A DNA stretch of 64,000 nucleotides, taken from contig MFHU01000004.1 of the NCBI GenBank assembly GCA_001778695.1, positions 210-64,209 on the forward strand. Reading direction: 5' to 3'. Shown here piece after piece: positions 3,799 through 47,761 of this stretch; within the stretch, counting starts at the first letter, position 1, and each line of letters opens with the position of its first letter. The position numbers were made by a program, and so were the translations under genes. This DNA comes from Candidatus Giovannonibacteria bacterium RIFCSPHIGHO2_12_FULL_44_22. Lineage in GTDB: Bacteria; Patescibacteriota; Minisyncoccia; UBA11713; 2-01-FULL-45-33. Under the pieces are notes generated by a model. It was not told the DNA's origin. It searched no databases and was given only the letters and a program-made list of their open reading frames with translations.

Positions 3799-4062
3799 AT
3801 GTTTTATGTCTATTTGATAAAAAATAATAATAAGCGCTGGTATATTGGGTCTACAAATGACTTAAAAAGAAGGATGACTGAGCATAATGCCGGCAAAAAC
3901 TTTTCAACTAAATATGATAAAACATGGAAATTAATATACTACGAAGCTTACTTGGACGAACACATGGCTAGAATAAGAGAGAAAAAGTTGAAAAGTTTTG
4001 GAAGTGCTTTTGGACACCTGTTAAAGCGTTTAGATATGGGCAATAAAAAAAAGGAGGGGTAA
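3799..4062 (+). CDS. GIY-YIG domain protein (YhbQ/UPF0213-like)
   Basis: YVYLIKNNNKRWYIGSTNDLKRRMTEHN GIY-YIG signature; paralog of 52924..53199. Confidence 0.7.
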   Translation: MFYVYLIKNNNKRWYIGSTNDLKRRMTEHNAGKNFSTKYDKTWKLIYYEAYLDEHMARIREKKLKSFGSAFGHLLKRLDMGNKKKEG

Positions 4063-4234: not shown

Positions 4235-4915
4235 ATGACAACAAAACCGAGGAATGGGAAAAATTTTCGGAGATTAATTATCGATACTATAAAGAAGGAT
4301 GAAGACGCTATTCCAGGCAGGGCTGGAGAAACGCCGATTTCGGATCTCGCCTGTATGTTTAAAAAGCTTAAAGATAAAGAGGCTGACGAAGCGATCAAAA
4401 CAATTGTTGACCTCATAAACACGCCGCCTGACCCACTTCTTGTTGCCGATCCAAAAAAATTCTGGTTCAACGTTATGTTTCTCTCACATTATCCTAAAGG
4501 CGAGAAAAATTCACTAAGAGATGCGTTTTTCGCTCGCTTGTTCGGGGAGAGGGCGCTGGATCGTAGTCTATTAATATGGATGTTTAATGGGTATATTGAA
4601 GCCGGAGGAATTTTTGATCAACCCATGCTTCTTGCATTATCGTTTCTTCGGGACGAATCTCCAATCGCATGGCTCAATGCGGCTGCCCGAAGCAGAGAAT
4701 TTGATTTTGTAAAAAATGAAGCCGTTCAGCTACTCCGAGATGGGAAAATTTCTTCTAGGACAGGAAGTGTTTTCATTTACTTTCTCGATTTTTTAAAAAA
4801 ACTTTGGCCGTCCGAAGAAGATTTTTTCAAAGTTGTTGAAGAATTCCACGACGCGGCACAAGATCAGGACACAAAAGAAAAGCTTCAAGGATGGATTGAT
4901 AGGCACAAAAAGTAG
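4235..4915 (+). CDS. Hypothetical protein (226 aa), no recognisable domain
   Basis: Long ORF with identical strong SD (AAGGAGGGG) 7 nt upstream; sits inside the fusA-tuf interval. Confidence 0.6.
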   Translation: MTTKPRNGKNFRRLIIDTIKKDEDAIPGRAGETPISDLACMFKKLKDKEADEAIKTIVDLINTPPDPLLVADPKKFWFNVMFLSHYPKGEKNSLRDAFFARLFGERALDRSLLIWMFNGYIEAGGIFDQPMLLALSFLRDESPIAWLNAAARSREFDFVKNEAVQLLRDGKISSRTGSVFIYFLDFLKKLWPSEEDFFKVVEEFHDAAQDQDTKEKLQGWIDRHKK

Positions 4916-4936
4916 AACAAATTTGATTCAGATAAA

Positions 4937-7404: not shown

Positions 7405-8055
7405 ATGAAAGTCAATACATATAATATAAAAGGAGAAAAAGCGGAGACTACGGAATTACCGGAGGGGATTTTTGGAGCGGCGTGGAAACCAGCACTAGTG
7501 AAGCAGGTTTTTGACGGCGAGATGGCAAATAAAAGACGCCCTTGGGCGCATACTAAAACCAGGGGCGAGGTCCGTGGCGGAGGCAGAAAGCCATGGCGGC
7601 AAAAAGGAACCGGACGCGCGAGGCATGGCTCAACCAGATCGCCATTGTGGGTTGGGGGAGGAATTGCTCACGGACCGAGAAATGAAAGGGATTATAGCGT
7701 AAAAATAAATAAAAAAATGAGGCGAGGGGCGCTGTTTTCTTTGCTTTCCAGAAAATTAAAAGACAAAGAAATTATTTTGATTGATAATTTTGAAATGGCT
7801 AAATCCAAAACTAGAGAAGCTTTTAATATTTTTAAAAATTTGAGGACAACGGGAGATATTTATAATTTAGGGATAAAAGGGGGGAAAGCGCTTCTGGCTT
7901 TGGCGAAAGGCGACGCTAAAAGGGCGGTCCATAATCTGCCTTTTGTAAATTTTATAGAGCCGAGAAATTTAAACGTCTCCGCGCTTTTGCAGAATAAATA
8001 TTTAATTTTGGATAAGGCCAGCATTAAAGAATTAGAAAAAACTTATGCCAGGTAG
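7405..8055 (+). CDS. rplD: 50S ribosomal protein L4
   Basis: KPWRQKGTGRARHGS...SPLWVGGG L4 signature. Confidence 0.9.
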   Translation: MKVNTYNIKGEKAETTELPEGIFGAAWKPALVKQVFDGEMANKRRPWAHTKTRGEVRGGGRKPWRQKGTGRARHGSTRSPLWVGGGIAHGPRNERDYSVKINKKMRRGALFSLLSRKLKDKEIILIDNFEMAKSKTREAFNIFKNLRTTGDIYNLGIKGGKALLALAKGDAKRAVHNLPFVNFIEPRNLNVSALLQNKYLILDKASIKELEKTYAR

Positions 8056-8186
8056 TGAAAAAATCGATTGCTTTTCGGTGATATTACAAAATCCAGCAGC
8101 TATCCTGCAGCTTTACATTGGGTCGAAATTTGAGGTTATATTTACAAAAGCATTATCATTAATCGATTTTTCTACTACCTGGTATG
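8044..8186 (+). repeat. Start-codon-associated hairpin element, long form (MITE-like), copy 1
   Basis: TATG|CCAGGTAGTGAAAAAATCGATTG...CAATCGATTTTTCTACTACCTGG|TATG; termini are inverted repeats; 3' ATG = rplW start; L4 stop TAG lies inside left terminus. Confidence 0.85.
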
Positions 8187-11490: not shown

Positions 11491-11635
11491 TATGCCAGGT
11501 AGTGAAAAAATCGATTGCTTTTCAGTGATATTACATAACCCGATAAATATCTGGCAATTTTACAGTTGGTCGAATTTTGCTATGTTTGGTTTATTAAAGC
11601 ATTATCACTAATCGATTTTTCTACTACCTGGTATG
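11491..11635 (+). repeat. Start-codon-associated hairpin element, long form, copy 2
   Basis: ~80% identical to copy 1 across 137 nt; same termini; 3' ATG = rpsQ start. Confidence 0.85.
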
Positions 11636-17377: not shown

Positions 17378-17517
17378 CCAGGTAGTGAAAAACTTGATCG
17401 CTTTTTTAAAATTTGTTTGCGATATGGGTTTACTGGGTTATATTGTAGTGGTAGGTGTTTAGCGATAGACTATTGAAAGCAATAAATTTTTAATCAAGTT
17501 TTTTACTACCTGGTATG
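17373..17517 (+). repeat. Start-codon-associated hairpin element, long form, copy 3
   Basis: Same termini (CCAGGTAGTGAAA / TTTTACTACCTGG), different interior; adk stop TGA overlaps left flank; 3' ATG = map start. Confidence 0.8.
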
Positions 17518-18267
17518 ATTATTAAAAATAAAAAAGAGCTGGAAATTTTGCGGGAAGGCGGCAAGAGACTTGCCGCCGTTTTAAACAAGGCAGCCAATAA
17601 CGCGATAGAAGGCGTCACGACCAGGGAGTTGAATGATTTGGCGGAAAGTTTAATTTTAAAATCCGGAGGCGCGCCGTCTTTTAAAGGATATAAAGCGCAG
17701 GGAGCTCCGCATCCTTACCCGGATGCGCTTTGTGTTTCAATAAACGAAGAGGTGGTGCATGGGTTGCCGGCTGGTCGCAAATTAAAAAATGGCGATATCG
17801 TTGGGTTGGACATAGGTATGTGGTATGAAGGCCTATGCACTGATACGGCTCTTACTGTTTTGGTTGGCGGAGGGAAAAATAAATTAATTGATGCCACAAA
17901 AAAATCTCTGGAGCTGGGGATTGCCGAAGTCCGCGCCGGCGCGCATGCCGGCGATATTGGTTTTGCGATTCAAAAATATTTGAAGAGTGAGGGTTTTGGC
18001 GTAGTGCGAGAATTGGTTGGGCATGGCGTTGGAAGAGCGGTTCACGAAGACCCGGAAATCCCAAATTGGGGAAAACGCGGCGTCGGACCGGAACTGGTTG
18101 AAAATATGATTATTGCTTTAGAGCCTATGGCCACTGAAGGCGGATATAAAGTAAAACTTTCCAAAGACGGTTGGACATGGCTCACTTGCGACGGCTCCCG
18201 CTCCGCGCATTTTGAGCATACTTTGGTGGTGACAAAAGGCGGGGCGGAGGTATTGACTCTACTTTAG
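17515..18267 (+). CDS. map: Type I methionine aminopeptidase
   Basis: Pita-bread fold metal ligands (D..D..H..E..E), 250 aa. Confidence 0.95.
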   Translation: MIIKNKKELEILREGGKRLAAVLNKAANNAIEGVTTRELNDLAESLILKSGGAPSFKGYKAQGAPHPYPDALCVSINEEVVHGLPAGRKLKNGDIVGLDIGMWYEGLCTDTALTVLVGGGKNKLIDATKKSLELGIAEVRAGAHAGDIGFAIQKYLKSEGFGVVRELVGHGVGRAVHEDPEIPNWGKRGVGPELVENMIIALEPMATEGGYKVKLSKDGWTWLTCDGSRSAHFEHTLVVTKGGAEVLTLL

Positions 18268-18286: not shown

Positions 18287-18505
18287 ATGAGGAAAATTGA
18301 TCTACAAAACGTGATTTGGAAAGAGGGCAAATATTATGTTGCCCAATGTTTGAATGTTGATGTTTCTAGTTTCGGCAAAACCAAAAAGGACGCTTTAGCC
18401 AACCTGCAAGAAGCCCTGGAACTTTATTTTGACGGAGCTAAAATATCAGATTTACTGAAAGTGGAGCAACCGACTATCGTGAAGCGCCAACTTCAGTATG
18501 CCTAA
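18287..18505 (+). CDS. hicB: HicB-family antitoxin (UPF0150)
   Basis: KYYVAQCLNVDVSSFGKTKKDALANLQEALELYFDG. Confidence 0.6.
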   Translation: MRKIDLQNVIWKEGKYYVAQCLNVDVSSFGKTKKDALANLQEALELYFDGAKISDLLKVEQPTIVKRQLQYA

Positions 18506-18707
18506 ATTTTATTCTTCGGATTATATCATCAAGGTCCTTCGCAGGAAGGGCTTTGTTTTTGTTTCTCAAAAAGGAAGCCATATGAAATTTCAAAAAGCAA
18601 GTTTGCCATTGACTGTGATCGTTCCGGCTAACCGTAAAGAAATTCCTATTGGCACTTTCCGCTCGATTTTACGGCAATCAAAATTAAAAGATGAAGATTT
18701 TAAATAA
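18498..18707 (+). CDS. hicA: HicA-family mRNA interferase toxin
   Basis: VLRRKGFVFVSQKGSHMKF...LTVIVPANRKEIPIGTFRSILRQ; 8-nt overlap with hicB. Confidence 0.65.
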   Translation: MPKFYSSDYIIKVLRRKGFVFVSQKGSHMKFQKASLPLTVIVPANRKEIPIGTFRSILRQSKLKDEDFK

Positions 18708-18721
18708 TTTCCTCGACAGCT

Positions 18722-18818
18722 GGACATGAGTAACTCGCGACGGCTCCCGCTCCGCCAATTTTGAACATACAGTTGTGGTAACAAAAACCGGCGCGGAAGT
18801 TTTGACTATGCTAAAATA
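18722..18818 (+). pseudogene. Diverged duplicate of the map 3' end (pseudo-fragment)
   Basis: ~80% nt identity to 18168..18267; in-frame TGA; brackets the hicBA cassette. Confidence 0.7.
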
Positions 18819-26381: not shown

Positions 26382-27266
26382 ATGAAAAATTTTTTAAAAC
26401 TTCATAAAAATAAAATTTTATCCGGCGGGCTGTTGTTTTTAGCGGCGCTCATGGCGCTTACCGGATTATATGTTTGGAATCTGGAGCATAAGCCCGAACT
26501 CCAAATTTATTTTTTTGACGTAGGGCAGGGGGATTCCATTTTTATTGAAGCCAAAGATGGCACGCAGATTTTAATTGACGGCGGGCCCACGAATAAAATT
26601 CTTCCGCTTTTGGGCGGCGTTATGCCCTTTTACGACCATTCCATAGATGTCGTTATTTTAACCCACCCGCATGCCGATCATGTTTCTGGACTTATGGAGG
26701 TTTTAAAAAGATATAATGTAGAGATGATTTTTGAAAGCGGAGCAAGTTACCACACGGCCGAAGCCAAAGAATTTGAAAGTATGGTTATTGAAAAAAATAT
26801 AAAAAAAATAATTATAGATAGGCCAGTTAAACTTTCTTTTTTTAAAAACGCCGCGCTGAATTTTTTATTTCCTGACAAATCTTTTGAGGGGCAAGTTTTA
26901 AAAAATGTTCATGATTCGGCTTTGATAAGTGAGCTGGATTTTGAAGGCAAAAAGATTTTGTTTATGTCGGACGCCGAAAAAAATTTGGAGCGCTATTTGC
27001 TTCAAAAAGGGGCTTTGGAGGACATTGATGTTTTGAAAGTTGGCCATCACGGCTCCAAAACTTCCAGCACCGCCGATTTTCTTAAAATCGTAAAACCGGA
27101 ATACGCCGTTATTTCAGCTAGCGACAGAAATCGCTACGGGCATCCGCATCCCGATGTTCTTTCTCGCCTTTCCGCCATAGGAGCCCAAATTTTCCGCACG
27201 GATATTAACGGCACCATTATTTTAAATATCAACAACGGCCGGCTGACTTTGCAAAAAGAAAAATAA
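26382..27266 (+). CDS. MBL-fold metallo-hydrolase (ComEC C-terminal beta-lactamase-like domain as separate ORF)
   Basis: ILTHPHADHVSGL; N-terminal TM; ORF-track start 26376 is TTG overlapping the comEC stop. Confidence 0.75.
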   Translation: MKNFLKLHKNKILSGGLLFLAALMALTGLYVWNLEHKPELQIYFFDVGQGDSIFIEAKDGTQILIDGGPTNKILPLLGGVMPFYDHSIDVVILTHPHADHVSGLMEVLKRYNVEMIFESGASYHTAEAKEFESMVIEKNIKKIIIDRPVKLSFFKNAALNFLFPDKSFEGQVLKNVHDSALISELDFEGKKILFMSDAEKNLERYLLQKGALEDIDVLKVGHHGSKTSSTADFLKIVKPEYAVISASDRNRYGHPHPDVLSRLSAIGAQIFRTDINGTIILNINNGRLTLQKEK

Positions 27267-27284
27267 TCTGCTATATTTTTGGAA

Positions 27285-27359
27285 TATGCCAGGTAGTGAA
27301 ATTTCGCATCACTACTTGGTAGTAATTAAAATTAATGCGAAATTCTACTACCTGGTATG
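27285..27359 (+). repeat. Start-codon-associated hairpin element, short form (67 nt), copy 4
   Basis: TATG|CCAGGTAGTGAAATTTCGCATC-ACTACTTGGTAGT-...-AATGCGAAATTCTACTACCTGG|TATG; 3' ATG = ndk start. Confidence 0.85.
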
Positions 27360-27947
27360 AAAAAACCCAAAGATGAGAGGACATTGGTTCTGGTAAAACC
27401 CGATGGCGTGATCCGCGGTTTGGTCGGCGAGGTGATTATGCGTTTTGAAAAGCGCGGGCTTAAAATAATCGCGTTAAAGATGGTCTGGCCCACTTCGGAA
27501 CACATTAACAAACACTATCCTTCGCACAATGAATGGTTTGAATCCGTTGGAAGCCGGACGAAGGAGTTTTTTCAGGGGAAAAATATTGATGTCAACGAAC
27601 ATTTTGGCACCGAAAATCCAGCCGAGATCGGTAAGCAGGTAAAGAGCTGGCTTTTGGACTATATGACTGTGGGTCCTGTTGTCGCGATGGTTATTGAGGG
27701 CATGCACGCGATAACGACTGTGAGAAAATTGGTCGGGCATACTTATCCAATAGAAGCGTTGCCGGGCAGTATCCGCGGGGATTTTTCCGTGGATACGCCT
27801 TCGGCGGCTAATGTTGAAAAAAGAGTAGTAAAAAATATTGTGCACGCTTCTGGAAATGACGCGGAAGCGTCCCATGAAATTGAACACTGGTTTTCTCCGG
27901 AAGAAATCAACGATTATAAGCGCTCCGATGAAGATATAATGTTTTAG
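27357..27947 (+). CDS. ndk: Nucleoside diphosphate kinase
   Basis: TLVLVKPDGV...NIVHASGN (active-site His). Confidence 0.9.
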   Translation: MKKPKDERTLVLVKPDGVIRGLVGEVIMRFEKRGLKIIALKMVWPTSEHINKHYPSHNEWFESVGSRTKEFFQGKNIDVNEHFGTENPAEIGKQVKSWLLDYMTVGPVVAMVIEGMHAITTVRKLVGHTYPIEALPGSIRGDFSVDTPSAANVEKRVVKNIVHASGNDAEASHEIEHWFSPEEINDYKRSDEDIMF

Positions 27948-27948
27948 T

Positions 27949-28329
27949 ATGAAAAGATTTTTTGAATCGTGGGCGTTTATTTTATTATTTTTGATTTTTA
28001 TTTTGGTCAATTTTGCTTTTGCACTTTACTTTAGGCTTTATTATCTGTTTTGGTGGCTGGATATAACGCATCATTTTCTGGGCGGGTTTTGGCTGGCCTT
28101 TTTACTTAATTTTTATCTGAAAAAAACCGGTTTTACTGTCTTTAACTTCCCGCTTTTATTATTATTATTTTTAGGTTTCGTGGCGCTAGTCGGAGTTTTG
28201 TGGGAATTTTTTGAGTTTGGCTTGAATCGTTACATTGTGCATATTGGTTTTATAAACTATGAAGATACTCTTTTGGATCTGTTTTTTGACTTATTGGGCG
28301 GAGCTGTGGGATTTATTTTAATTTTATGA
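27949..28329 (+). CDS. Hypothetical small membrane protein (4 TM)
   Basis: Hydrophobic, Trp/Phe-rich; no recognisable motif. Confidence 0.4.
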   Translation: MKRFFESWAFILLFLIFILVNFAFALYFRLYYLFWWLDITHHFLGGFWLAFLLNFYLKKTGFTVFNFPLLLLLFLGFVALVGVLWEFFEFGLNRYIVHIGFINYEDTLLDLFFDLLGGAVGFILIL

Positions 28330-29660
28330 TTAAACTTTCATTTTACGGCGCATCGCAGGAAGTTACCGGAAGCTGTTTTTTACTGGATGATGGCAAGAAT
28401 AAAATTTTAATAGACTGCGGGCTTTTCCAGTGCCCGAAATTTTGCGATATCCGAAGCCGCGAATCTCTGCCTTTTGATCCAAAAAATATATCCGCTCTTT
28501 TTGTGACCCATCCGCACATTGACCACACCGGGCGCATTCCTAAATTGGTAAAAGACGGTTTCGCGGGGAAAATTTATTCAACTTACCCTGCGCGCGATCT
28601 GGCGGAGCTGATGCTGAAAGACAGCACCGGAGTTATGATGAAAGAAGCAAAGCGGGAAGGTGTGCCGGCGCTTTACACGGAGGAGGATGTTGACCGCGCC
28701 ATGGCTCTTTGGGAAGGGAAAAATTATCATGAGAAAATATCGGTGGGTAATTTTAACGTAACTCTTTACGACGCCGGCCATGTTTTGGGTTCAGCCATGA
28801 TTTTGGTAAATAACAAAATTCTATTCAGCGGCGATTTGGGGAATCCTTCCAACCCATTACTTTCCGGTTTTGAGGAAGTGGCGGGAGTGAACACCTTAAT
28901 TGTTGAATCCACTTATGGCGACAGGGGGCATGAAGACGCAAAGGAAAAAAAAATAAAATTGGAGCGTGTGATTGAACAAAGCGTCGCCAGAGGAGGGGCT
29001 CTCATGATTCCGGCTTTTTCTTTGGAAAGAACCCAAGAGCTTCTTTGGGAAATTTCCGGCATGCTGAAAAACAAGCAGATTCCCAACGTGCCGATTTTTT
29101 TGGACAGCCCCTTGGCTATACGCGCCACGGAAGTTTACCAAAAATATTATTCATATCTTAACCGCGCCTATGTTGACCAAAAAACTTTTTCTTTTTTGAA
29201 TCTGCCAAATGTGCATCCGACTTTGGCCACGGAAGAATCCAAAAAAATAAATGGTGTCCCAAATCCCAAAATAATTATCGCGGGCTCCGGCATGTCCACT
29301 GGCGGAAGAATTTTGCACCATGAAAGAAGATATTTGCAAGATCCTAAAAGCACAATTTTATTCATCGGCTATCAGGCGCCAGGGTCTTTGGGGCGCAGAA
29401 TAGAAGACGGCGCGGAGAGCGTGACGCTTTTTGGCGAAGAGATTCCAATAAGGTGCCACAAGGAAATTATTTACGGTTATTCGGCCCATCCAGACGAGGC
29501 GACGCTTTTTGAATTTGTGAGAGACAAATCCGACACTTTAAAAAAAGTTTACGCGGTTCACGGCGAACCGAAATCTTCTCTGGCTCTTATCCAAAAAATC
29601 CGCGACTATCTGGGCATTCCCGCCTTCGCCCCAAAATACGGCGAGAGTGTTATAATATAA
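28326..29660 (+). CDS. Beta-CASP family MBL-fold ribonuclease (RNase J / CPSF73-like)
   Basis: HPHIDHTG motif, beta-CASP and C-terminal RNA-specificity region, 444 aa. Confidence 0.75.
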   Translation: MIKLSFYGASQEVTGSCFLLDDGKNKILIDCGLFQCPKFCDIRSRESLPFDPKNISALFVTHPHIDHTGRIPKLVKDGFAGKIYSTYPARDLAELMLKDSTGVMMKEAKREGVPALYTEEDVDRAMALWEGKNYHEKISVGNFNVTLYDAGHVLGSAMILVNNKILFSGDLGNPSNPLLSGFEEVAGVNTLIVESTYGDRGHEDAKEKKIKLERVIEQSVARGGALMIPAFSLERTQELLWEISGMLKNKQIPNVPIFLDSPLAIRATEVYQKYYSYLNRAYVDQKTFSFLNLPNVHPTLATEESKKINGVPNPKIIIAGSGMSTGGRILHHERRYLQDPKSTILFIGYQAPGSLGRRIEDGAESVTLFGEEIPIRCHKEIIYGYSAHPDEATLFEFVRDKSDTLKKVYAVHGEPKSSLALIQKIRDYLGIPAFAPKYGESVII

Positions 29661-29663
29661 CCC

Positions 29664-29722
29664 ATGGACGGACAGCATATACATTTGAAGTATAAAATTT
29701 GCGTGTCGGGGGCGGCGGAGAT
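29664..29722 (+). pseudogene. Duplicated 5' end (plus ~12 nt upstream) of the 30394 LOG-family gene
   Basis: Near-identical to 30394..30452 (ATGGACGGnAAGCATATACATTTGAAGTATAAAATTTGCGTGTC...); truncated 27-codon ORF. Confidence 0.75.
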
Positions 29723-29764
29723 CGGGCTTGATTTTCTTTTAAATTGAATTATAATTAAGATATT

Positions 29765-30004
29765 ATGAAATATTTTGAGCGGATAGAAGTAAATCCAAAG
29801 ATTATGATGGGTAAGCCCGTAATTAGAGGCACGCGCATTCCAGTGTACGTTATTTTAAATTTGCTGGCTGAAGGATACAACGAAAAAGAGGTACAAAAAG
29901 AGTACCCAGATCTTGGAAAAGCAGATATTTTGGCGGCCTTGCGGTTTGCTGCGCTTACAACGCAGTTTGAGGAACTTCGAAAAGAACCGCAATTTGCGAG
30001 ATAA
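29765..30004 (+). CDS. DUF433 family protein (putative antitoxin)
   Basis: MGKPVIRGTRIPVYVILNLLAEGYNEKEVQKEYPDLGKADILAALRFAA. Confidence 0.55.
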   Translation: MKYFERIEVNPKIMMGKPVIRGTRIPVYVILNLLAEGYNEKEVQKEYPDLGKADILAALRFAALTTQFEELRKEPQFAR

Positions 30005-30006
30005 AC

Positions 30007-30381
30007 ATGACGCTCTTTCTTTTGGACGAAAACTTATCTCCGCATTTGGCAATTTGGTTAAGACATTTAGGTTACGCGGCTAAAGCGGCGCGAGAAACAA
30101 ATCTTAAAGGAAGAAGTGACGAAGATGTTGTAAGATGGGCGCAAAAACATAAAGCTGTTATTTTAACCTCCGATTTGGATTTCGGAGAATTTTTTTACGG
30201 GAAAAGCTTAGGAGCTTTCGGCGTTATTATTTTAAGAAGCAGATCTCAAGGCATAGATTCGTTTAAAAAAATACTTAAAACGCTTCACGCCGGCAAGGTC
30301 TTAAAAGATAAGAGGCTTATTAGCTCTCTATTGGTGGCTGATGAAAACAATTATCGTTGGCGGAAATTCAATATAGAATGA
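30007..30381 (+). CDS. DUF5615 (Mut7-C/PIN-like) protein (putative toxin)
   Basis: MTLFLLDENLSPHL...ILTSDLDFGEF; typical partner of DUF433. Confidence 0.55.
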   Translation: MTLFLLDENLSPHLAIWLRHLGYAAKAARETNLKGRSDEDVVRWAQKHKAVILTSDLDFGEFFYGKSLGAFGVIILRSRSQGIDSFKKILKTLHAGKVLKDKRLISSLLVADENNYRWRKFNIE

Positions 30382-30393
30382 TATAATATAATA

Positions 30394-30966
30394 ATGGACG
30401 GGAAGCATATACATTTGAAGTATAAAATTTGCGTGTCTGGGGCGGCGGAGACGGGACATTGCGCCCCGGGCACTTTGGAAAAGGCCAAAATTTTGGGTGA
30501 AGAAATCGCTAAACATAAAGCAATTTTAGTGAACGGCGCTACAACCGGGTTTCCAATGTGGGCGGCAATCGGCGCCAAAGAGGCCGGCGGTTTTACCATC
30601 GGGCTTTCTCCGGCAAGTACAGAAAAAGAGCATGTTGAAGCTTACCATCTGCCGGTTGATTATATGGATATAATACTTTACACCGGCTTTGGATACTCCG
30701 GAAGGAATTTGTTTTTGACGCGCTCGGCCGACGCTGCGATCGTGGGCTGCGGCCGTTGGGGGACGATTAACGAGTTTTCCATCGCTTTGGAAGACGGCAA
30801 ACCCATCGGCGTTTTGGAGGGAGCTGGCGGGAGCACGGATGTGATAAAAGATATTATAGAAAAATCCGCCCGCGGCCCGGGAAATATTGTTTATGACGCC
30901 GATCCAAAAAAATTGGTTGAAAAAGTTTTGGAGCTAGTCAAAAAAGAAAAAATTATTAAAGTTTAA
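30394..30966 (+). CDS. TIGR00725/LOG-family Rossmann-fold protein
   Basis: ICVSGAAETGHCAP...LVNGATTGFPMWAAIGAKEAGGFTIGLSP. Confidence 0.6.
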   Translation: MDGKHIHLKYKICVSGAAETGHCAPGTLEKAKILGEEIAKHKAILVNGATTGFPMWAAIGAKEAGGFTIGLSPASTEKEHVEAYHLPVDYMDIILYTGFGYSGRNLFLTRSADAAIVGCGRWGTINEFSIALEDGKPIGVLEGAGGSTDVIKDIIEKSARGPGNIVYDADPKKLVEKVLELVKKEKIIKV

Positions 30967-32102
30967 TGATATTTCGGATATCTCCATTTTGGGAGGCGAT
31001 AGGAATTACAGGAAGCGTGATTATTGGCTCCGGCATATTTATACTGCCTTATGCGGTGAGCATCTCCGGCCTTTGGGCGGCATTAGGCATGGGAGCGCTC
31101 GCGCTGTTTTTGGTGCTTTCAATTCATTTGGCCTACGGAGAAATAGTATCCAATACGGAGGAGCGGCACCGGCTTCCCGGATACGCGCGGCTGTATTTAG
31201 GGAAATTTGCCGGCAATTTATCCAAAGCCACCGAACTTTTGCTGTTTAACGCCGTGCTTTTGACTTACGGCATTTTAGGAGGTAAATTTCTTTCCGTGGT
31301 TTTCGGGGGGAACTCCACGGCTTGGTCGCTTCTTTTTTTTGCGGCCGCCGCTTTGGTCTTGCTCTATTCACACGTAGAGCGCATCGGCTCAATAAATTTT
31401 TTAATTATGAGCGTGGTTATATTAATGGAATTGGCCATCGCGTTTTTATCTTTTAAGGCGGGCTCTTTTTCTAATCTGCCTTTATCCGGGCGCGACCCGT
31501 TTTTTTCTTTTGGCGTGTTTGTGTTCGCGTTGGCGGGCCTTTCTATTATTGCCGACGCTAGAGAAATTTTTAGGCGGGGCAATATTGAGCATAAACTTAA
31601 ATCAGTGATTATTTTAATCACATCTCTCCCGCTTTTGCTTTATTTTATTTTTATAGTGTCAGTGCTGATGGCAACCGGCATGGACGCGACCAAGGATGTT
31701 TTTTCCGGCTTGGCCAAGGTCTTAGGCAGCCGCGTCATCATGGCCGGCGCGTTTATCGGCGCGTTTTCAATGTTTTCTTCTTTTTTGGCTTTGGGGTATG
31801 ACCTTAAAAAAATCTACGAGCTGGACATTGCCTTACCGAAGCTTATGTCTTGGGCTTTGGCGGCGCTGCTTCCCGCGGCAGTTTTTATTTTAATCAGGAT
31901 TGACTTTGTGAAATTGGTGTCTATTGTTGGCGGAATATTTATCGCAATTGATGGCATCTTGGTTTTTTTTATTTTAAGAAAAATGCGCGCGCAGGGCCTC
32001 TCGCGCGTCAAATTTCTCCCATTCGGGTTTTTACAAAGGGCGCTTCTCCTGCCCATTTTGGTTTTGAGCATAGTTTATGAAATTATTTATCAGATTTTTT
32101 AA
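30966..32102 (+). CDS. Polytopic membrane protein, probable amino-acid/aromatic permease-like transporter
   Basis: ~11 TM helices, 378 aa. Confidence 0.45.
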   Translation: MIFRISPFWEAIGITGSVIIGSGIFILPYAVSISGLWAALGMGALALFLVLSIHLAYGEIVSNTEERHRLPGYARLYLGKFAGNLSKATELLLFNAVLLTYGILGGKFLSVVFGGNSTAWSLLFFAAAALVLLYSHVERIGSINFLIMSVVILMELAIAFLSFKAGSFSNLPLSGRDPFFSFGVFVFALAGLSIIADAREIFRRGNIEHKLKSVIILITSLPLLLYFIFIVSVLMATGMDATKDVFSGLAKVLGSRVIMAGAFIGAFSMFSSFLALGYDLKKIYELDIALPKLMSWALAALLPAAVFILIRIDFVKLVSIVGGIFIAIDGILVFFILRKMRAQGLSRVKFLPFGFLQRALLLPILVLSIVYEIIYQIF

Positions 32103-32104
32103 AT

Positions 32105-34777
32105 ATGAATCAGTGGCACGCCAAAACAATTCCCGAAATTCTTGATGCGCTTCATTCGCGCGAACAGGGCTTAACAAAAGAAGAAGCAACGAAACGTCTC
32201 AAAGAATATGGCCAGAATTATCTTCCCGAAGGTAAGGTAACGAGCCTCCACATTATTTTTCTGCGCCAGTTCCAAAGTCCGCTGATTTACATTCTTCTTG
32301 CGGCAAGCATAATTGTTTTTGCGATGGGAGAAACAATAGACGGCTCAATCATTCTCACAGTTCTTATTTTCAATGCCATTGTCGGGACCATCCAAGAGGG
32401 CAAGGCGCAAAACACGCTTCGGGCGCTCAAGAAATTCGTAGAGACGAAAGCAACCGTGCTTCGCGAAGGAAAAGAGCTTATTATCTCTGACAGCGAAGTG
32501 GTGCCAGGCGATATTATTATTCTGCAGGAAGGCGATAAAGCGCCAGCGGACGCGCGAATCATCGCGGCCGCGAACCTCAAAATTGACGAAGCGGCTCTTA
32601 CGGGCGAATCAGAGCCGGTGCATAAAATTGCCGATACTCTGGAGAGAGATGGCTTGCCAATTACGGAGCAGAAAAACATGATTTTCAAAGGGACGCATGT
32701 TCTTGCCGGAAACGGCAGAGCGATTGTGGTGGCAACTGGCATTGAGACAGTCATTGGAAAAATTTCAAAGGAGATTGCGGCGATTGATACCGAAATTCCT
32801 CTCAAGACAAACATCCGTTATCTTTCACGGCTTATTATTATCACAGTCGCAGGTATCAGCGCTCTCTTGTTTTTTCTCGGCATTGTTTCGGGAAAATCGG
32901 TAAAAGAAATGTTTACTACTATAGTTTCGCTTTCTGTTTCTATCATCCCCGAAGGGCTGCCTATTGTGATGACATTAATACTCGCCACTGGCGTATGGAG
33001 AATGTCAAAGCGAAATGCTCTGGTAAAAAAACTTCAGGCGGTAGAAGCATTGGGGCAAGCACGCGTGATTGCGGTTGATAAAACCGGAACCATCACCAAA
33101 AACGAGATGGTAATCCAGAAAGTGTACCTGGACGGCAAATTTTTCGAAATAGGCGGCATCGGCTACGAACCGAAAGGAGCAATTCAATTAAACGGGAATG
33201 TGGTTGATTCGGTTAATCACCCAGAACTTCTTTTTGCGGGGAAAATCGCCGCTTTTTGCGCAAGCGCCCACGTGATGTTTTCTGAAGAAGAGAAAGTATG
33301 GCGCGTTGCCGGCGACCCAACTGAAGCGGCAATGCTCGTGCTCGCCCAAAAGCTCGGTTTTTACAAGGATGATTTAGAGCGGGAGTCGCCGCTTGTTGGC
33401 GAGATTCCGTTTGATTACAAACTCAAGTATCACGCGACGATTCACCGATTTGACGGCCAAAAGTTTTTAGCCGTTGTTGGCGCGCCGGAAGTAATTTTAA
33501 ACCTTTCTCAAATATCAAAAGAAGAAAAACAAAAATTGGAATCTGTTTTTCTCTCTATGTCGCAAGAAGGGTTGCGGATTATCGCGTTAGCTGAAACTCG
33601 CGACGCGCCGGAAATACTTGCGCCAGAAGAAATTAAATCACTTACTTTTGTAGGATTTTTCGGCATGAAAGACGCGCTTCGGCCAGAGGTGGCGGGAGCT
33701 ATGCAAAAAGCGGTTTCTGCCGGCATCCGAGTGGTAATGATAACAGGAGATCATAAAGTTACGGCGCGGGCGATCGCCAAAGAGGCCGGCATTTATCAAG
33801 ATGGCGATACTATTCTTACAGGACAAGACATTGACGCTTTTTCCGACAACGAGCTTTCCGAAAAATTGGCCGGAACCTCGGTATTCGCGCGAGTAACGCC
33901 GGAACACAAATTGAGAATTATCAAGGCGTATAAGGCGCGCGGGGAAATTGTCGCCATGACCGGAGACGGCGTAAATGACGCCCCCTCGCTCGTTGCCGCC
34001 GACCTTGGCGTGGCAATGGGAAAGATCGGCACGGAGGTGGCAAAAGAAGCTTCGGATATAGTGCTTCTTGACGACAACTTTGGAAGCATTGTTTCTGCAG
34101 TAGAAGAAGGGCGAAGTATTTACAAAACAATTAAAAAAGTAATCCTCTATCTCTTCTCCACCAGCTTGGGAGAAGCGTTGACCATCACAGGCGCGCTTCT
34201 CTTGGGTTATCCTCTCCCTCTTTTGCCGGCGCAGATTATTTGGCTCAACTTTGTTACCGATGGTTTCCTTGATGTGGCGCTTGCCATGGAGCCGAAAGAA
34301 GAAGGACTGCTTCGCGGCAACTTCGAGCGGCCCAAAAAGTATCTGGTAGACAAACTTATGGCGCAGAGAATGTTTATCATGGCTATACCTATGATGATTG
34401 GAACACTGTTTCTTTTTCAGAAATATTTTTCCGCCGGAGGCGGATCCGCCTTTGGCGGAGAAAACGATCTTGCCAAGGCTTGGACAATTTCGCTCACCAC
34501 ACTCGCGGTATTTCAATGGTTCAACGCCTGGAACTGCCGGCACGAATCAAAATCCATTTTCCAAATGAATCCCTTTTCCAACAAATTCTTGGTGGGGGCA
34601 ACGCTTATCATTATCTCCTTGCAGCTTTTAGTGATTTATAATCCGCTCATGCAAAAAATTCTCCGAACCATCGAACTCTCTTTTTCAGAATGGGCGATTA
34701 TTATTCCGATTGCCGCTTCTATCGTTCTTGTCGAGGAAATAAGAAAATTCTTTTATCGGAGAAAAATGGTAACATGA
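32105..34777 (+). CDS. Cation-transporting P-type ATPase (type IIA-like)
   Basis: DKTGTITKN phosphorylation site, TGDGVNDAPSL hinge; contains a 30-nt palindromic in-frame insert. Confidence 0.92.
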   Translation: MNQWHAKTIPEILDALHSREQGLTKEEATKRLKEYGQNYLPEGKVTSLHIIFLRQFQSPLIYILLAASIIVFAMGETIDGSIILTVLIFNAIVGTIQEGKAQNTLRALKKFVETKATVLREGKELIISDSEVVPGDIIILQEGDKAPADARIIAAANLKIDEAALTGESEPVHKIADTLERDGLPITEQKNMIFKGTHVLAGNGRAIVVATGIETVIGKISKEIAAIDTEIPLKTNIRYLSRLIIITVAGISALLFFLGIVSGKSVKEMFTTIVSLSVSIIPEGLPIVMTLILATGVWRMSKRNALVKKLQAVEALGQARVIAVDKTGTITKNEMVIQKVYLDGKFFEIGGIGYEPKGAIQLNGNVVDSVNHPELLFAGKIAAFCASAHVMFSEEEKVWRVAGDPTEAAMLVLAQKLGFYKDDLERESPLVGEIPFDYKLKYHATIHRFDGQKFLAVVGAPEVILNLSQISKEEKQKLESVFLSMSQEGLRIIALAETRDAPEILAPEEIKSLTFVGFFGMKDALRPEVAGAMQKAVSAGIRVVMITGDHKVTARAIAKEAGIYQDGDTILTGQDIDAFSDNELSEKLAGTSVFARVTPEHKLRIIKAYKARGEIVAMTGDGVNDAPSLVAADLGVAMGKIGTEVAKEASDIVLLDDNFGSIVSAVEEGRSIYKTIKKVILYLFSTSLGEALTITGALLLGYPLPLLPAQIIWLNFVTDGFLDVALAMEPKEEGLLRGNFERPKKYLVDKLMAQRMFIMAIPMMIGTLFLFQKYFSAGGGSAFGGENDLAKAWTISLTTLAVFQWFNAWNCRHESKSIFQMNPFSNKFLVGATLIIISLQLLVIYNPLMQKILRTIELSFSEWAIIIPIAASIVLVEEIRKFFYRRKMVT
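34430..34459. repeat. 30-nt double-hairpin palindromic element, in-frame in P-type ATPase
   Basis: TCCGCCGGAGGCGGATCCGCCTTTGGCGGA encodes SAGGGSAFGG. Confidence 0.9.
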
Positions 34778-47686: not shown

Positions 47687-47761
47687 TATACCAGGCAGTG
47701 AAACTTCGCGTTGCTGCTTGGCAGTTATTAAACTTAACGCGAAGTTCTACTACCTGGTATG
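47687..47761 (+). repeat. Start-codon-associated hairpin element, short form (67 nt), copy 5
   Basis: TATA|CCAGGCAGTGAAACTTCGCGTTG-GCTGCTTGGCAGT-...-AACGCGAAGTTCTACTACCTGG|TATG; 3' ATG = ileS start. Confidence 0.8.

Follow-up and report, generated by a model that had tools for sequence, protein, structure and literature searches.

The subject of this report is a direct repeat, here called T, and the small gene cassette that it encloses in a 64,000-nucleotide stretch of contig MFHU01000004.1 from Candidatus Giovannonibacteria bacterium RIFCSPHIGHO2_12_FULL_44_22; the whole stretch is referred to as the window. The cassette consists of a DUF433 gene followed by a DUF5615 gene, a putative toxin-antitoxin (TA) pair, and lies between a gene for a beta-CASP metallo-beta-lactamase and a gene of SLOG cluster 4. 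Judged by its sequence, the locus is a case of insertion with long target duplication, which is a mode defined for restriction-modification units free of any other mobile element and seen chiefly in competent species (Nobusato et al. 2000, Gene 259:99; PMC2853133); the addictive cargo here is of another kind. Set beside related genomes, the locus suggests that the T-cassette-T unit moved horizontally between lineages, apparently with no transposase or integrase of its own. The reading favored here, at a rough probability of 0.6, is that a TA operon carried within T would spread as a unit by DNA uptake and T-guided homologous recombination, its loss being opposed by addiction.

The two copies of T (Table 1) lie within a few bases of the positions given in a preliminary description of this DNA (29650-29722 and 30378-30452). 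From the SLOG start codon onward they are identical at 55 of 58 positions (29664-29721 against 30394-30451); upstream of the ATG, a 17-nt stretch matches at 15 positions and adjoins a 3-nt indel zone, and a weaker match of ~5 nt lengthens the copies to 29726 and 30455. BLAST aligns copy with copy at 89% across 83 nt, and local alignment of the left flank with the right flank gives z = 39.8 against shuffles. As had been proposed, the second copy is the real start of the SLOG gene (30394), and the first is a truncated 27-codon open reading frame (ORF) directly after the beta-CASP stop; this copy takes in the final ~17 nt of the beta-CASP gene, and its ORF ends 17 nt ahead of the antitoxin ATG. 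The duplication leaves both host genes intact. Its boundaries coincide, as anticipated, with the ends of the cassette, which opens with a -35 box of its own and closes with the toxin stop; the toxin TGA sits where the second copy begins. The junctions hold short microhomologies only: the cassette start CGGGCTTG resembles CGGGACATTG in the target, and the cassette end GAATGA resembles GAGTGT.

What does this site look like when it is empty? The beta-CASP protein served as query against species-representative genomes and the SLOG protein as query against metagenomes, and five neighbouring genes were then mapped onto the loci found (identified by handles such as L009). Beta-CASP/SLOG adjacency is kept across many Paceibacteria: in nine relatives the two genes are 2-25 nt apart, supplying the uninterrupted junction that the preliminary description had suggested looking for in sister genomes, and in non-empty relatives 0.35-3.8 kb separates them. 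When the cassette and one copy of T are deleted in silico, the resulting junction is collinear with four of the real empty sites (L010, L016, L063 and L064); the relic copy therefore corresponds to the ancestral junction, and the repeat to a duplication of the target.

Table 1. Features of the cassette locus and of comparable loci (positions are those of the window unless another locus is named)
Feature	Positions	Strand	Remarks
Beta-CASP metallo-beta-lactamase gene, upstream host	28326-29660	+	444 aa; Pfam Beta-Casp 1.7e-36, Lactamase_B, RMMBL
Repeat copy 1, relic T	29644-29721	+	Ancestral beta-CASP-stop/SLOG-promoter/SLOG-start junction; collinear with empty sites L010, L016, L063, L064
Relic ORF	29664-29747	+	27 codons; first 19-20 codons equal the SLOG N-terminus, then runs into the cassette
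Inserted cassette	29722-30374	+	653 bp, own -35 box to toxin stop; same boundaries in L009, L080, L081
Cassette promoter-like site	29728-29755	+	TTGATT-16-TATAAT; 10/12 consensus match only
Antitoxin candidate, DUF433/COG2442	29765-30004	+	79 aa; PF04255 1.2e-23
Toxin candidate, DUF5615 PIN-like nuclease	30007-30381	+	124 aa; PF18480 2.2e-19, PIN_10, Mut7-C
Repeat copy 2, functional T	30375-30451	+	TGnTATAAT box plus first 19 SLOG codons
SLOG cluster 4 gene, downstream host	30394-30966	+	190 aa, intact; Pfam PF18306 1e-34
Map case, repeat copy 1	18166-18263	+	Functional 3' end of map (17515-18267); z ~40
Map case, cargo	18287-18707	+	HicB-position gene DUF7387 18287-18505 (2.8e-6); HicA toxin 18498-18707 (2.7e-16)
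Map case, repeat copy 2	18715-18812	+	Decayed relic of map 3' end, 80% identity, in-frame stop
Beta-CASP/SLOG fill, L009, L080, L081			Same DUF433/DUF5615 cassette; same SLOG 5' repeat, 87-100%
Beta-CASP/SLOG fill, L057			HicB/HicA pair; 73-nt repeat, 98.6%, copy of beta-CASP 3' end
Beta-CASP/SLOG fill, L058	1136-1525 (L058)		Ortholog of the L057 hicBA cassette, decayed; hicB intact, hicA broken after ~18 codons
Beta-CASP/SLOG fill, L013			66-aa protein plus PIN protein, then HicB/HicA pair; 77-nt repeat, 92%, beta-CASP 3' end
Beta-CASP/SLOG fill, L008, L067			Diversity-generating retroelement (DGR)-like units; no flanking repeat
Beta-CASP/SLOG fill, L078			Methyltransferase/LexA-like block; no repeat
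Beta-CASP/SLOG fill, several other loci			Single ORFs; no repeat
Hairpin element copies	8044-8186, 11491-11635, 17378-17517, ~27285-27359, copies ending 47761 and 53753	+	

The cargo is a TA-type pair by its Pfam matches, in line with the preliminary description. The DUF433 product scores 83.1 bits against PF04255 (cut-off 23.6) and the DUF5615 product 69.8 bits against PF18480 (cut-off 23.8); both genes match TA-type Pfam families only, and no recombinase family. They are co-oriented, DUF433 before DUF5615, with a 2-nt gap and one promoter-like site upstream, a kind of site found three times in the region against 2.9 expected in its shuffles. The ratio of nonsynonymous to synonymous divergence (dN/dS) is ~0.05 for the antitoxin candidate and 0.14-0.35 for the toxin candidate, whose acidic residues D7, E8, D38, D56 and D58 are unchanged across 17 homologs; a sequence search of solved structures with the toxin candidate returned no meaningful match. 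By family and acidic residues, the pair is assigned to the type II TA modules as a putative member of the PIN-COG2442 kind. Systems of this kind were predicted by Makarova et al. 2009 (PMC2701414), and one PIN-COG2442 pair, vapBC10 of Synechocystis, is an experimentally shown TA system in which the DUF433 family acts as the antitoxin (PMC3834315). The pair shares with these VapBC-type systems the upstream DUF433 gene, the downstream PIN-like gene, the compact operon and the acidic residues; unlike them, its toxin candidate comes from the DUF5615/PIN_10/Mut7-C branch and not from the classical PIN family PF01850, and the pair is known here by sequence.

How old is the insertion? The preliminary description took it to be recent because the duplicates are nearly identical, a conclusion that fails: four species-level Giovannonibacteria lineages (the window, L009, L080 and L081) carry the same cassette with the same boundaries although their SLOG genes have a synonymous divergence (dS) of 0.6-2.1, and the similarity of the copies would instead reflect recombination between them or their re-derivation. 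The cassette itself is 2-6 times less diverged than its neighbor: in each of the six possible pairs of these genomes the toxin gene has a dS within 0.2-0.45, and the whole cassette has one of 0.26-0.38 for pairs of the window, L009 and L080 (pairs with L081 use the toxin gene alone), against 0.59-2.1 for the adjacent SLOG gene across all pairs. When the window is aligned with L009, DNA identity reaches 91-93% in the cassette genes and 70-86% in five flanking genes; an AT-rich flanking gene (DUF2238) is more, not less, diverged. A sliding window delimits the tract of high identity to relic T, cassette and functional T, with an abrupt fall just beyond T (L009 against L080, from 90-93% to 73-78% past the T end). 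To the left of the relic there is no homology at all among the window, L009 and L080 (L081 reaches only 28 nt there): the relic is preceded by the beta-CASP stop in the window, by a CxxC ORF in L009 and by a small membrane ORF in L080. The distance orders also conflict, the SLOG gene placing the window and L009 nearest to each other and the toxin gene placing L009 nearest to L081 and L080. The lower dS of the cassette, the tract that ends at T and the discordant orders of cassette and host genes together point to horizontal spread of the unit; by these comparisons, the unit is much younger than the neighbouring host genes, yet its insertion is not recent.

The copies of T tell a similar story. 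Inside one genome they are 87-100% alike among the carriers, and the L081 relic (58-nt coding part) is 2 nt away from the L009 copies and from the functional copy of L080 but 7 nt from its own functional partner. The relic ORF is open in all four carriers (also L009 3286-3369, L080 470-553 and L081 43-126), and, the window excepted, relic and functional copies differ by synonymous changes only; such differences are expected if relics have repeatedly been re-derived from functional SLOG starts and unexpected for a decaying fragment. The relic ORF, together with the captured SLOG promoter, may serve as a leader for the TA operon instead of being dead DNA.

The duplicated gene end is not peculiar to this site. 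Four other independent TA cassettes are bounded in the same way: hicBA downstream of map, hicBA downstream of the beta-CASP gene, a PIN pair likewise downstream of the beta-CASP gene and a second DUF433/DUF5615 cassette at rplT. These four represent three families, and each is flanked by a duplication of whichever gene end adjoins it (73-264 nt, z = 38-148); their genes have TA-type Pfam matches only, or none. The map case lies in the same window and does have the same architecture, as the preliminary description held, with a 98-nt duplication of the map 3' end; the map relic also occurs in L090 and is absent from L088 and L089, in which hicBA adjoins map without any relic. The rplT cassette, located between an ABC permease gene and rplT, is 64% identical to that of the window, and the repeat around it duplicates 264 nt from the 3' part of rplT (86% identity). 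At the beta-CASP/SLOG hotspot, the L013 repeat brackets the PIN pair, and L058, which has lost the downstream relic repeat, is likely a snapshot of cassette decay following toxin inactivation. Across the sequences compared, long flanking repeats accompany 5 of 9 independent TA cassettes and none of ~10 non-TA fills (Fisher p = 0.011). The idea of a common integration mechanism that duplicates gene ends finds a counterpart in a class already described for restriction-modification units (PMC2853133).

How could two genes that encode no recombinase move between chromosomes? Competence-proficient cells would take up T-cassette-T DNA from relatives, and host homologous recombination would integrate the unit with T as the sole homology (Campbell-type or ends-in). 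Integration at any empty site with a single T would regenerate T-cassette-T with the same boundaries and with recipient-specific DNA outside. Recombination between the two T copies would keep them alike and would also delete the cassette, but cells losing it would be poisoned by the stable toxin; addiction against loss would explain why only TA cargo lies between such repeats. Patescibacteria possess comEC, pili and recombination genes (PMC12455944). In the window, a ComEC-like gene lies ~3 kb upstream on the same contig. A bolder version, which we entertain only tentatively, treats these cassettes as autonomous recombinase-free elements whose sole "end" would be the duplicated target: host RecA would excise them as small circles, which would re-insert at a single T in a related cell after uptake, and the toxin would punish loss.

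Several observations weigh against spread guided by T. The window's own population offers neither an empty-site allele nor a circular form, all 24 contigs inspected carrying the cassette. At ~80 nt, T is short, and the efficiency of recombination is assumed; toxicity and addiction are ascribed to the pair by family membership alone. T is 83-86% identical in cassette-free genomes and 83-93% among carriers, and because it encodes a conserved N-terminus, coding constraint accounts for part of its high identity. The dS values come from small genes (240 and 375 nt). The contrast between cassette and flanks is weaker at the map site (hicBA dS 0.32-0.79, flanks 0.75-1.2), as would suit an insertion of greater age, where the relic retains 80% identity or has disappeared. 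Finally, the sample of TA and non-TA fills is small, gathered around one hotspot, biased and not genome-wide, and some of the non-TA fills may be ancestral genes, not insertions.

Can the same pattern arise without T-guided transfer? Metagenome-assembled genomes may mis-join repeats, and a mixed population could mimic the locus by making the assembly graph loop, but the chance of this is practically negligible: 3 of 58 positions, and some upstream bases, distinguish one copy from the other, one assembler worked with k = 141, more than the length of the repeat, and the same structure is seen in at least 24 independently assembled contigs (several samples and assemblers) and in three other species. 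The population to which the window belongs is Candidatus Giovannonibacteria (GCA_001780595.1 and Rifle-type metagenomes); the window differs from those contigs by 3-4 single-nucleotide polymorphisms per 12 kb, none of them within the repeats. A biological alternative is ordinary double crossover within the two conserved neighbours, on the model of the Neisseria "minimal mobile elements", the duplication being an irrelevant leftover of the first insertion. The cargo of the beta-CASP/SLOG junction does vary by genome, the organisms are thought to be competent, and hicBA can sit beside map without a relic (L088 and L089); this explanation is nonetheless unlikely, for the tract of high identity halts at the end of T and does not reach on into SLOG, and since no DNA beyond the relic is shared among the window, L009 and L080, there is no left arm except T itself. 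Strictly vertical descent from one ancient insertion, with gene conversion homogenising the copies and an unusually constrained cassette, would account for identical boundaries in all four genomes, for the 87-100% likeness of copies within a genome and for the purifying selection on the cassette genes. It is quite improbable, given that cassette dS is 2-6 times below that of SLOG in every pair, that the distance orders conflict, that the AT-rich DUF2238 flank gene is more diverged, that the L081 relic is nearer to the copies of other genomes than to its own partner and that the DNA just left of the relic is unrelated between genomes.

Two further alternatives invoke dedicated enzymes. Direct repeats around a cargo inserted at the same point in four genomes are what integration by a site-specific recombinase encoded elsewhere (integron-like or integrase-mobilised) would leave as attL and attR. 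The cassette, though, comprises two TA genes only, with no recombinase-family match; the duplicated targets of the four sites (five events) have no common core on either strand, their repeats spanning 71-264 nt; and no cassette-end inverted repeat or attC-like structure is noted at the cassette 3' end, where the toxin stop abuts T. Integrase and transposase families are absent from the annotated neighbours within 6 kb on either side of the insert (12 kb in all), and this alternative is very improbable. Transposition with an unusually long staggered cut, which would make the repeats true target-site duplications, is more doubtful still: three of the five events are similar in length (73-83 nt), but the remaining two measure 98 and 264 nt, so the duplication is not of the short, fixed length typical of insertion sequences and transposons, and the 71-264-nt span excludes a fixed-length target-site duplication. 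The repeat scan found no terminal inverted repeats, the junctions of the five cassettes have no conserved end, and the cassette contains no transposase. The lack of a shared core, the variable lengths and the TA-only gene content jointly disfavor a site-specific recombinase as well as a transposase of fixed stagger. The 632 kb of related DNA held further direct repeats that were set aside as not being target duplications: template/variable pairs of DGRs (L008, L011, L066 and L067), a protein-internal repeat (L036) and a weak 67-nt pair (L020).

The closest known counterpart of the T-cassette-T unit is the insertion of restriction-modification units with long target duplication. Both involve a small selfish unit that has no mobility gene, long direct repeats, from tens to hundreds of bp and differing in length between cases, that both align to one single-copy target at the empty site and often overlap gene ends, hosts that are mostly naturally competent, and a cargo able to kill cells that lose it. 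Set against the structural definition of Furuta et al. 2010, the locus shows an empty-site alignment, a duplication of 78-83 nt (above 30 bp) and a 653-bp insert (below 20 kb) without a mobility gene; its cargo is DUF433 plus DUF5615 in place of restriction and modification genes. It differs also in that the hosts are Patescibacteria and in that the double-strand-break property of restriction-modification systems is inapplicable to RNA-targeting toxins. The work on restriction-modification units hypothesised a cycle of invasion, amplification and release (Furuta, Abe and Kobayashi 2010, PMC2853133); the present comparisons add evidence of a unit moving between lineages, previously hypothesis only. 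A review of restriction-modification and TA systems credits the long-target-duplication mode to restriction-modification units only (PMC3874152), and a literature search, with subscription journals mostly outside its reach, found no report of TA cassettes with long target duplications, in Patescibacteria or elsewhere.

Two other systems invite comparison. Neisseria minimal mobile elements, reportedly described by Saunders and Snyder, move by recombination in flanking genes, and duplicated gene ends are no part of their definition. Like them, the hotspot accommodates varied whole-gene cassettes between two conserved genes in transformable bacteria, without mobility genes: TA pairs, DGR-like units, a methyltransferase/LexA-like block and other ORFs. 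Unlike an exchange driven by flanking genes, the shared tract ends at T and nothing is shared to the left of the relic. Campbell-type insertion-duplication of circular DNA carrying a chromosomal segment is a laboratory mutagenesis tool, and its product has the same homology-insert-homology topology; to our knowledge, no natural, self-perpetuating version carrying a TA module has been described. The minimal mobile element concept itself is mentioned in PMC8627216.

The duplicated segment also carries what looks like the SLOG promoter. A TATAAT box, often within TGnTATAAT, precedes every SLOG gene (window 30381-30393; L010, L016, L057, L059, L064 and others), and the distance from the end of the box to the ATG, 7-9 nt, is kept in relatives. 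These features suggest that the SLOG mRNA is leaderless or near-leaderless and is made from a putative extended -10 promoter overlapping the end of the upstream gene; in the window, the TGA of the toxin gene doubles as the TG of the TGnTATAAT box. The downstream gene had been described as LOG-family, an imprecise label for a product that falls in SLOG cluster 4 (PF18306); the name RNase J given to the upstream gene is likewise imprecise, its product being a beta-CASP metallo-beta-lactamase protein. An exact-sequence look-up of the 190-aa product gave no match on record; the SLOG protein of a neighbouring population differs by two residues and has a later start in most gene calls there.

Other fills of these sites have features of their own. 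The DGR-like units (L008 6550-9208, L067 1181-4960 and also L066) combine a ~330-aa reverse transcriptase with an Avd-like four-helix ORF on the opposite strand; their repeat pair (120-134 nt, 85-91%), the first copy of which lies at the 3' end of a large ORF, matches a variable/template pair. In L009 (2842-3273, a 70-aa CxxC protein) and L080 (66-458, a 74-aa membrane protein), extra small ORFs lie between the beta-CASP stop and the relic; they are mutually unrelated, both come after a common ~73-nt terminator-like hairpin, and no flanking repeats were found around them. Upstream of SLOG in L059, a 20-nt palindromic motif (TGTCACTATTGACA core) occurs at 4029-4048 and 4915-4934 beside a minus-strand hicBA; it was rejected as a target duplication and resembles an operator or promoter element instead. 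At the map site of L090 (2166-3320), three copies of the map 3' end alternate with two successive inserts, T1 - X - T2 - hicBA - T3, where T1 to T3 are the map copies and X (~420 nt) has minus-strand ORFs (2275-2452) for two hydrophobic peptides, 28 and 29 aa long. From this arrangement, the same target seems to have received a second insertion with duplication, and the X peptides may be small membrane toxins.

Elsewhere in the window, hairpin elements of one family, bounded by terminal inverted repeats CCAGGTAGTGAAA...TTCTACTACCTGG, are present in six copies, all on the + strand and each ending ...CTACTACCTGGTATG; with the terminal ATG, translation of the downstream gene begins (rplW, rpsQ, map, ndk and the ORFs at 47759 and 53751). 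RNA folds of the hairpin have z = -5.1 and -8.0, and the chance expectation for the 15-mer is 0.01 copies. The family could be a MITE-like (miniature inverted-repeat transposable) element or a hairpin that sequesters start codons. No exact copies were found in the related genomes compared, and an Rfam scan of 27000-33000 gave sub-threshold miRNA-like matches only, on the hairpin at 27273-27375.

What, then, does the cassette tell about TA modules? It addresses a long-standing gap, namely how chromosomal TA modules spread without a plasmid, phage or transposon, and offers a specific route open to testing, in which a unit enclosed by a long duplicate of the target it occupies is moved by host recombination and retained by addiction. 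A little-known insertion class thereby gains another sort of addictive module and reaches the Patescibacteria, and this second cargo points to post-segregational killing, not DNA cleavage, as the property that the cargoes share. Near-identical flanking repeats turn out to be an unsafe sign of recent insertion, and the beta-CASP/SLOG hotspot is well defined and usable for studying gene flow in uncultivated ultra-small bacteria. If the bolder version, that of autonomous recombinase-free elements, is true, it would provide genomic evidence for the release-and-reinvasion cycle that has been proposed, but never shown, for restriction-modification units, and the movement of chromosomal TA modules in the absence of mobile-element vehicles would have a concrete explanation.

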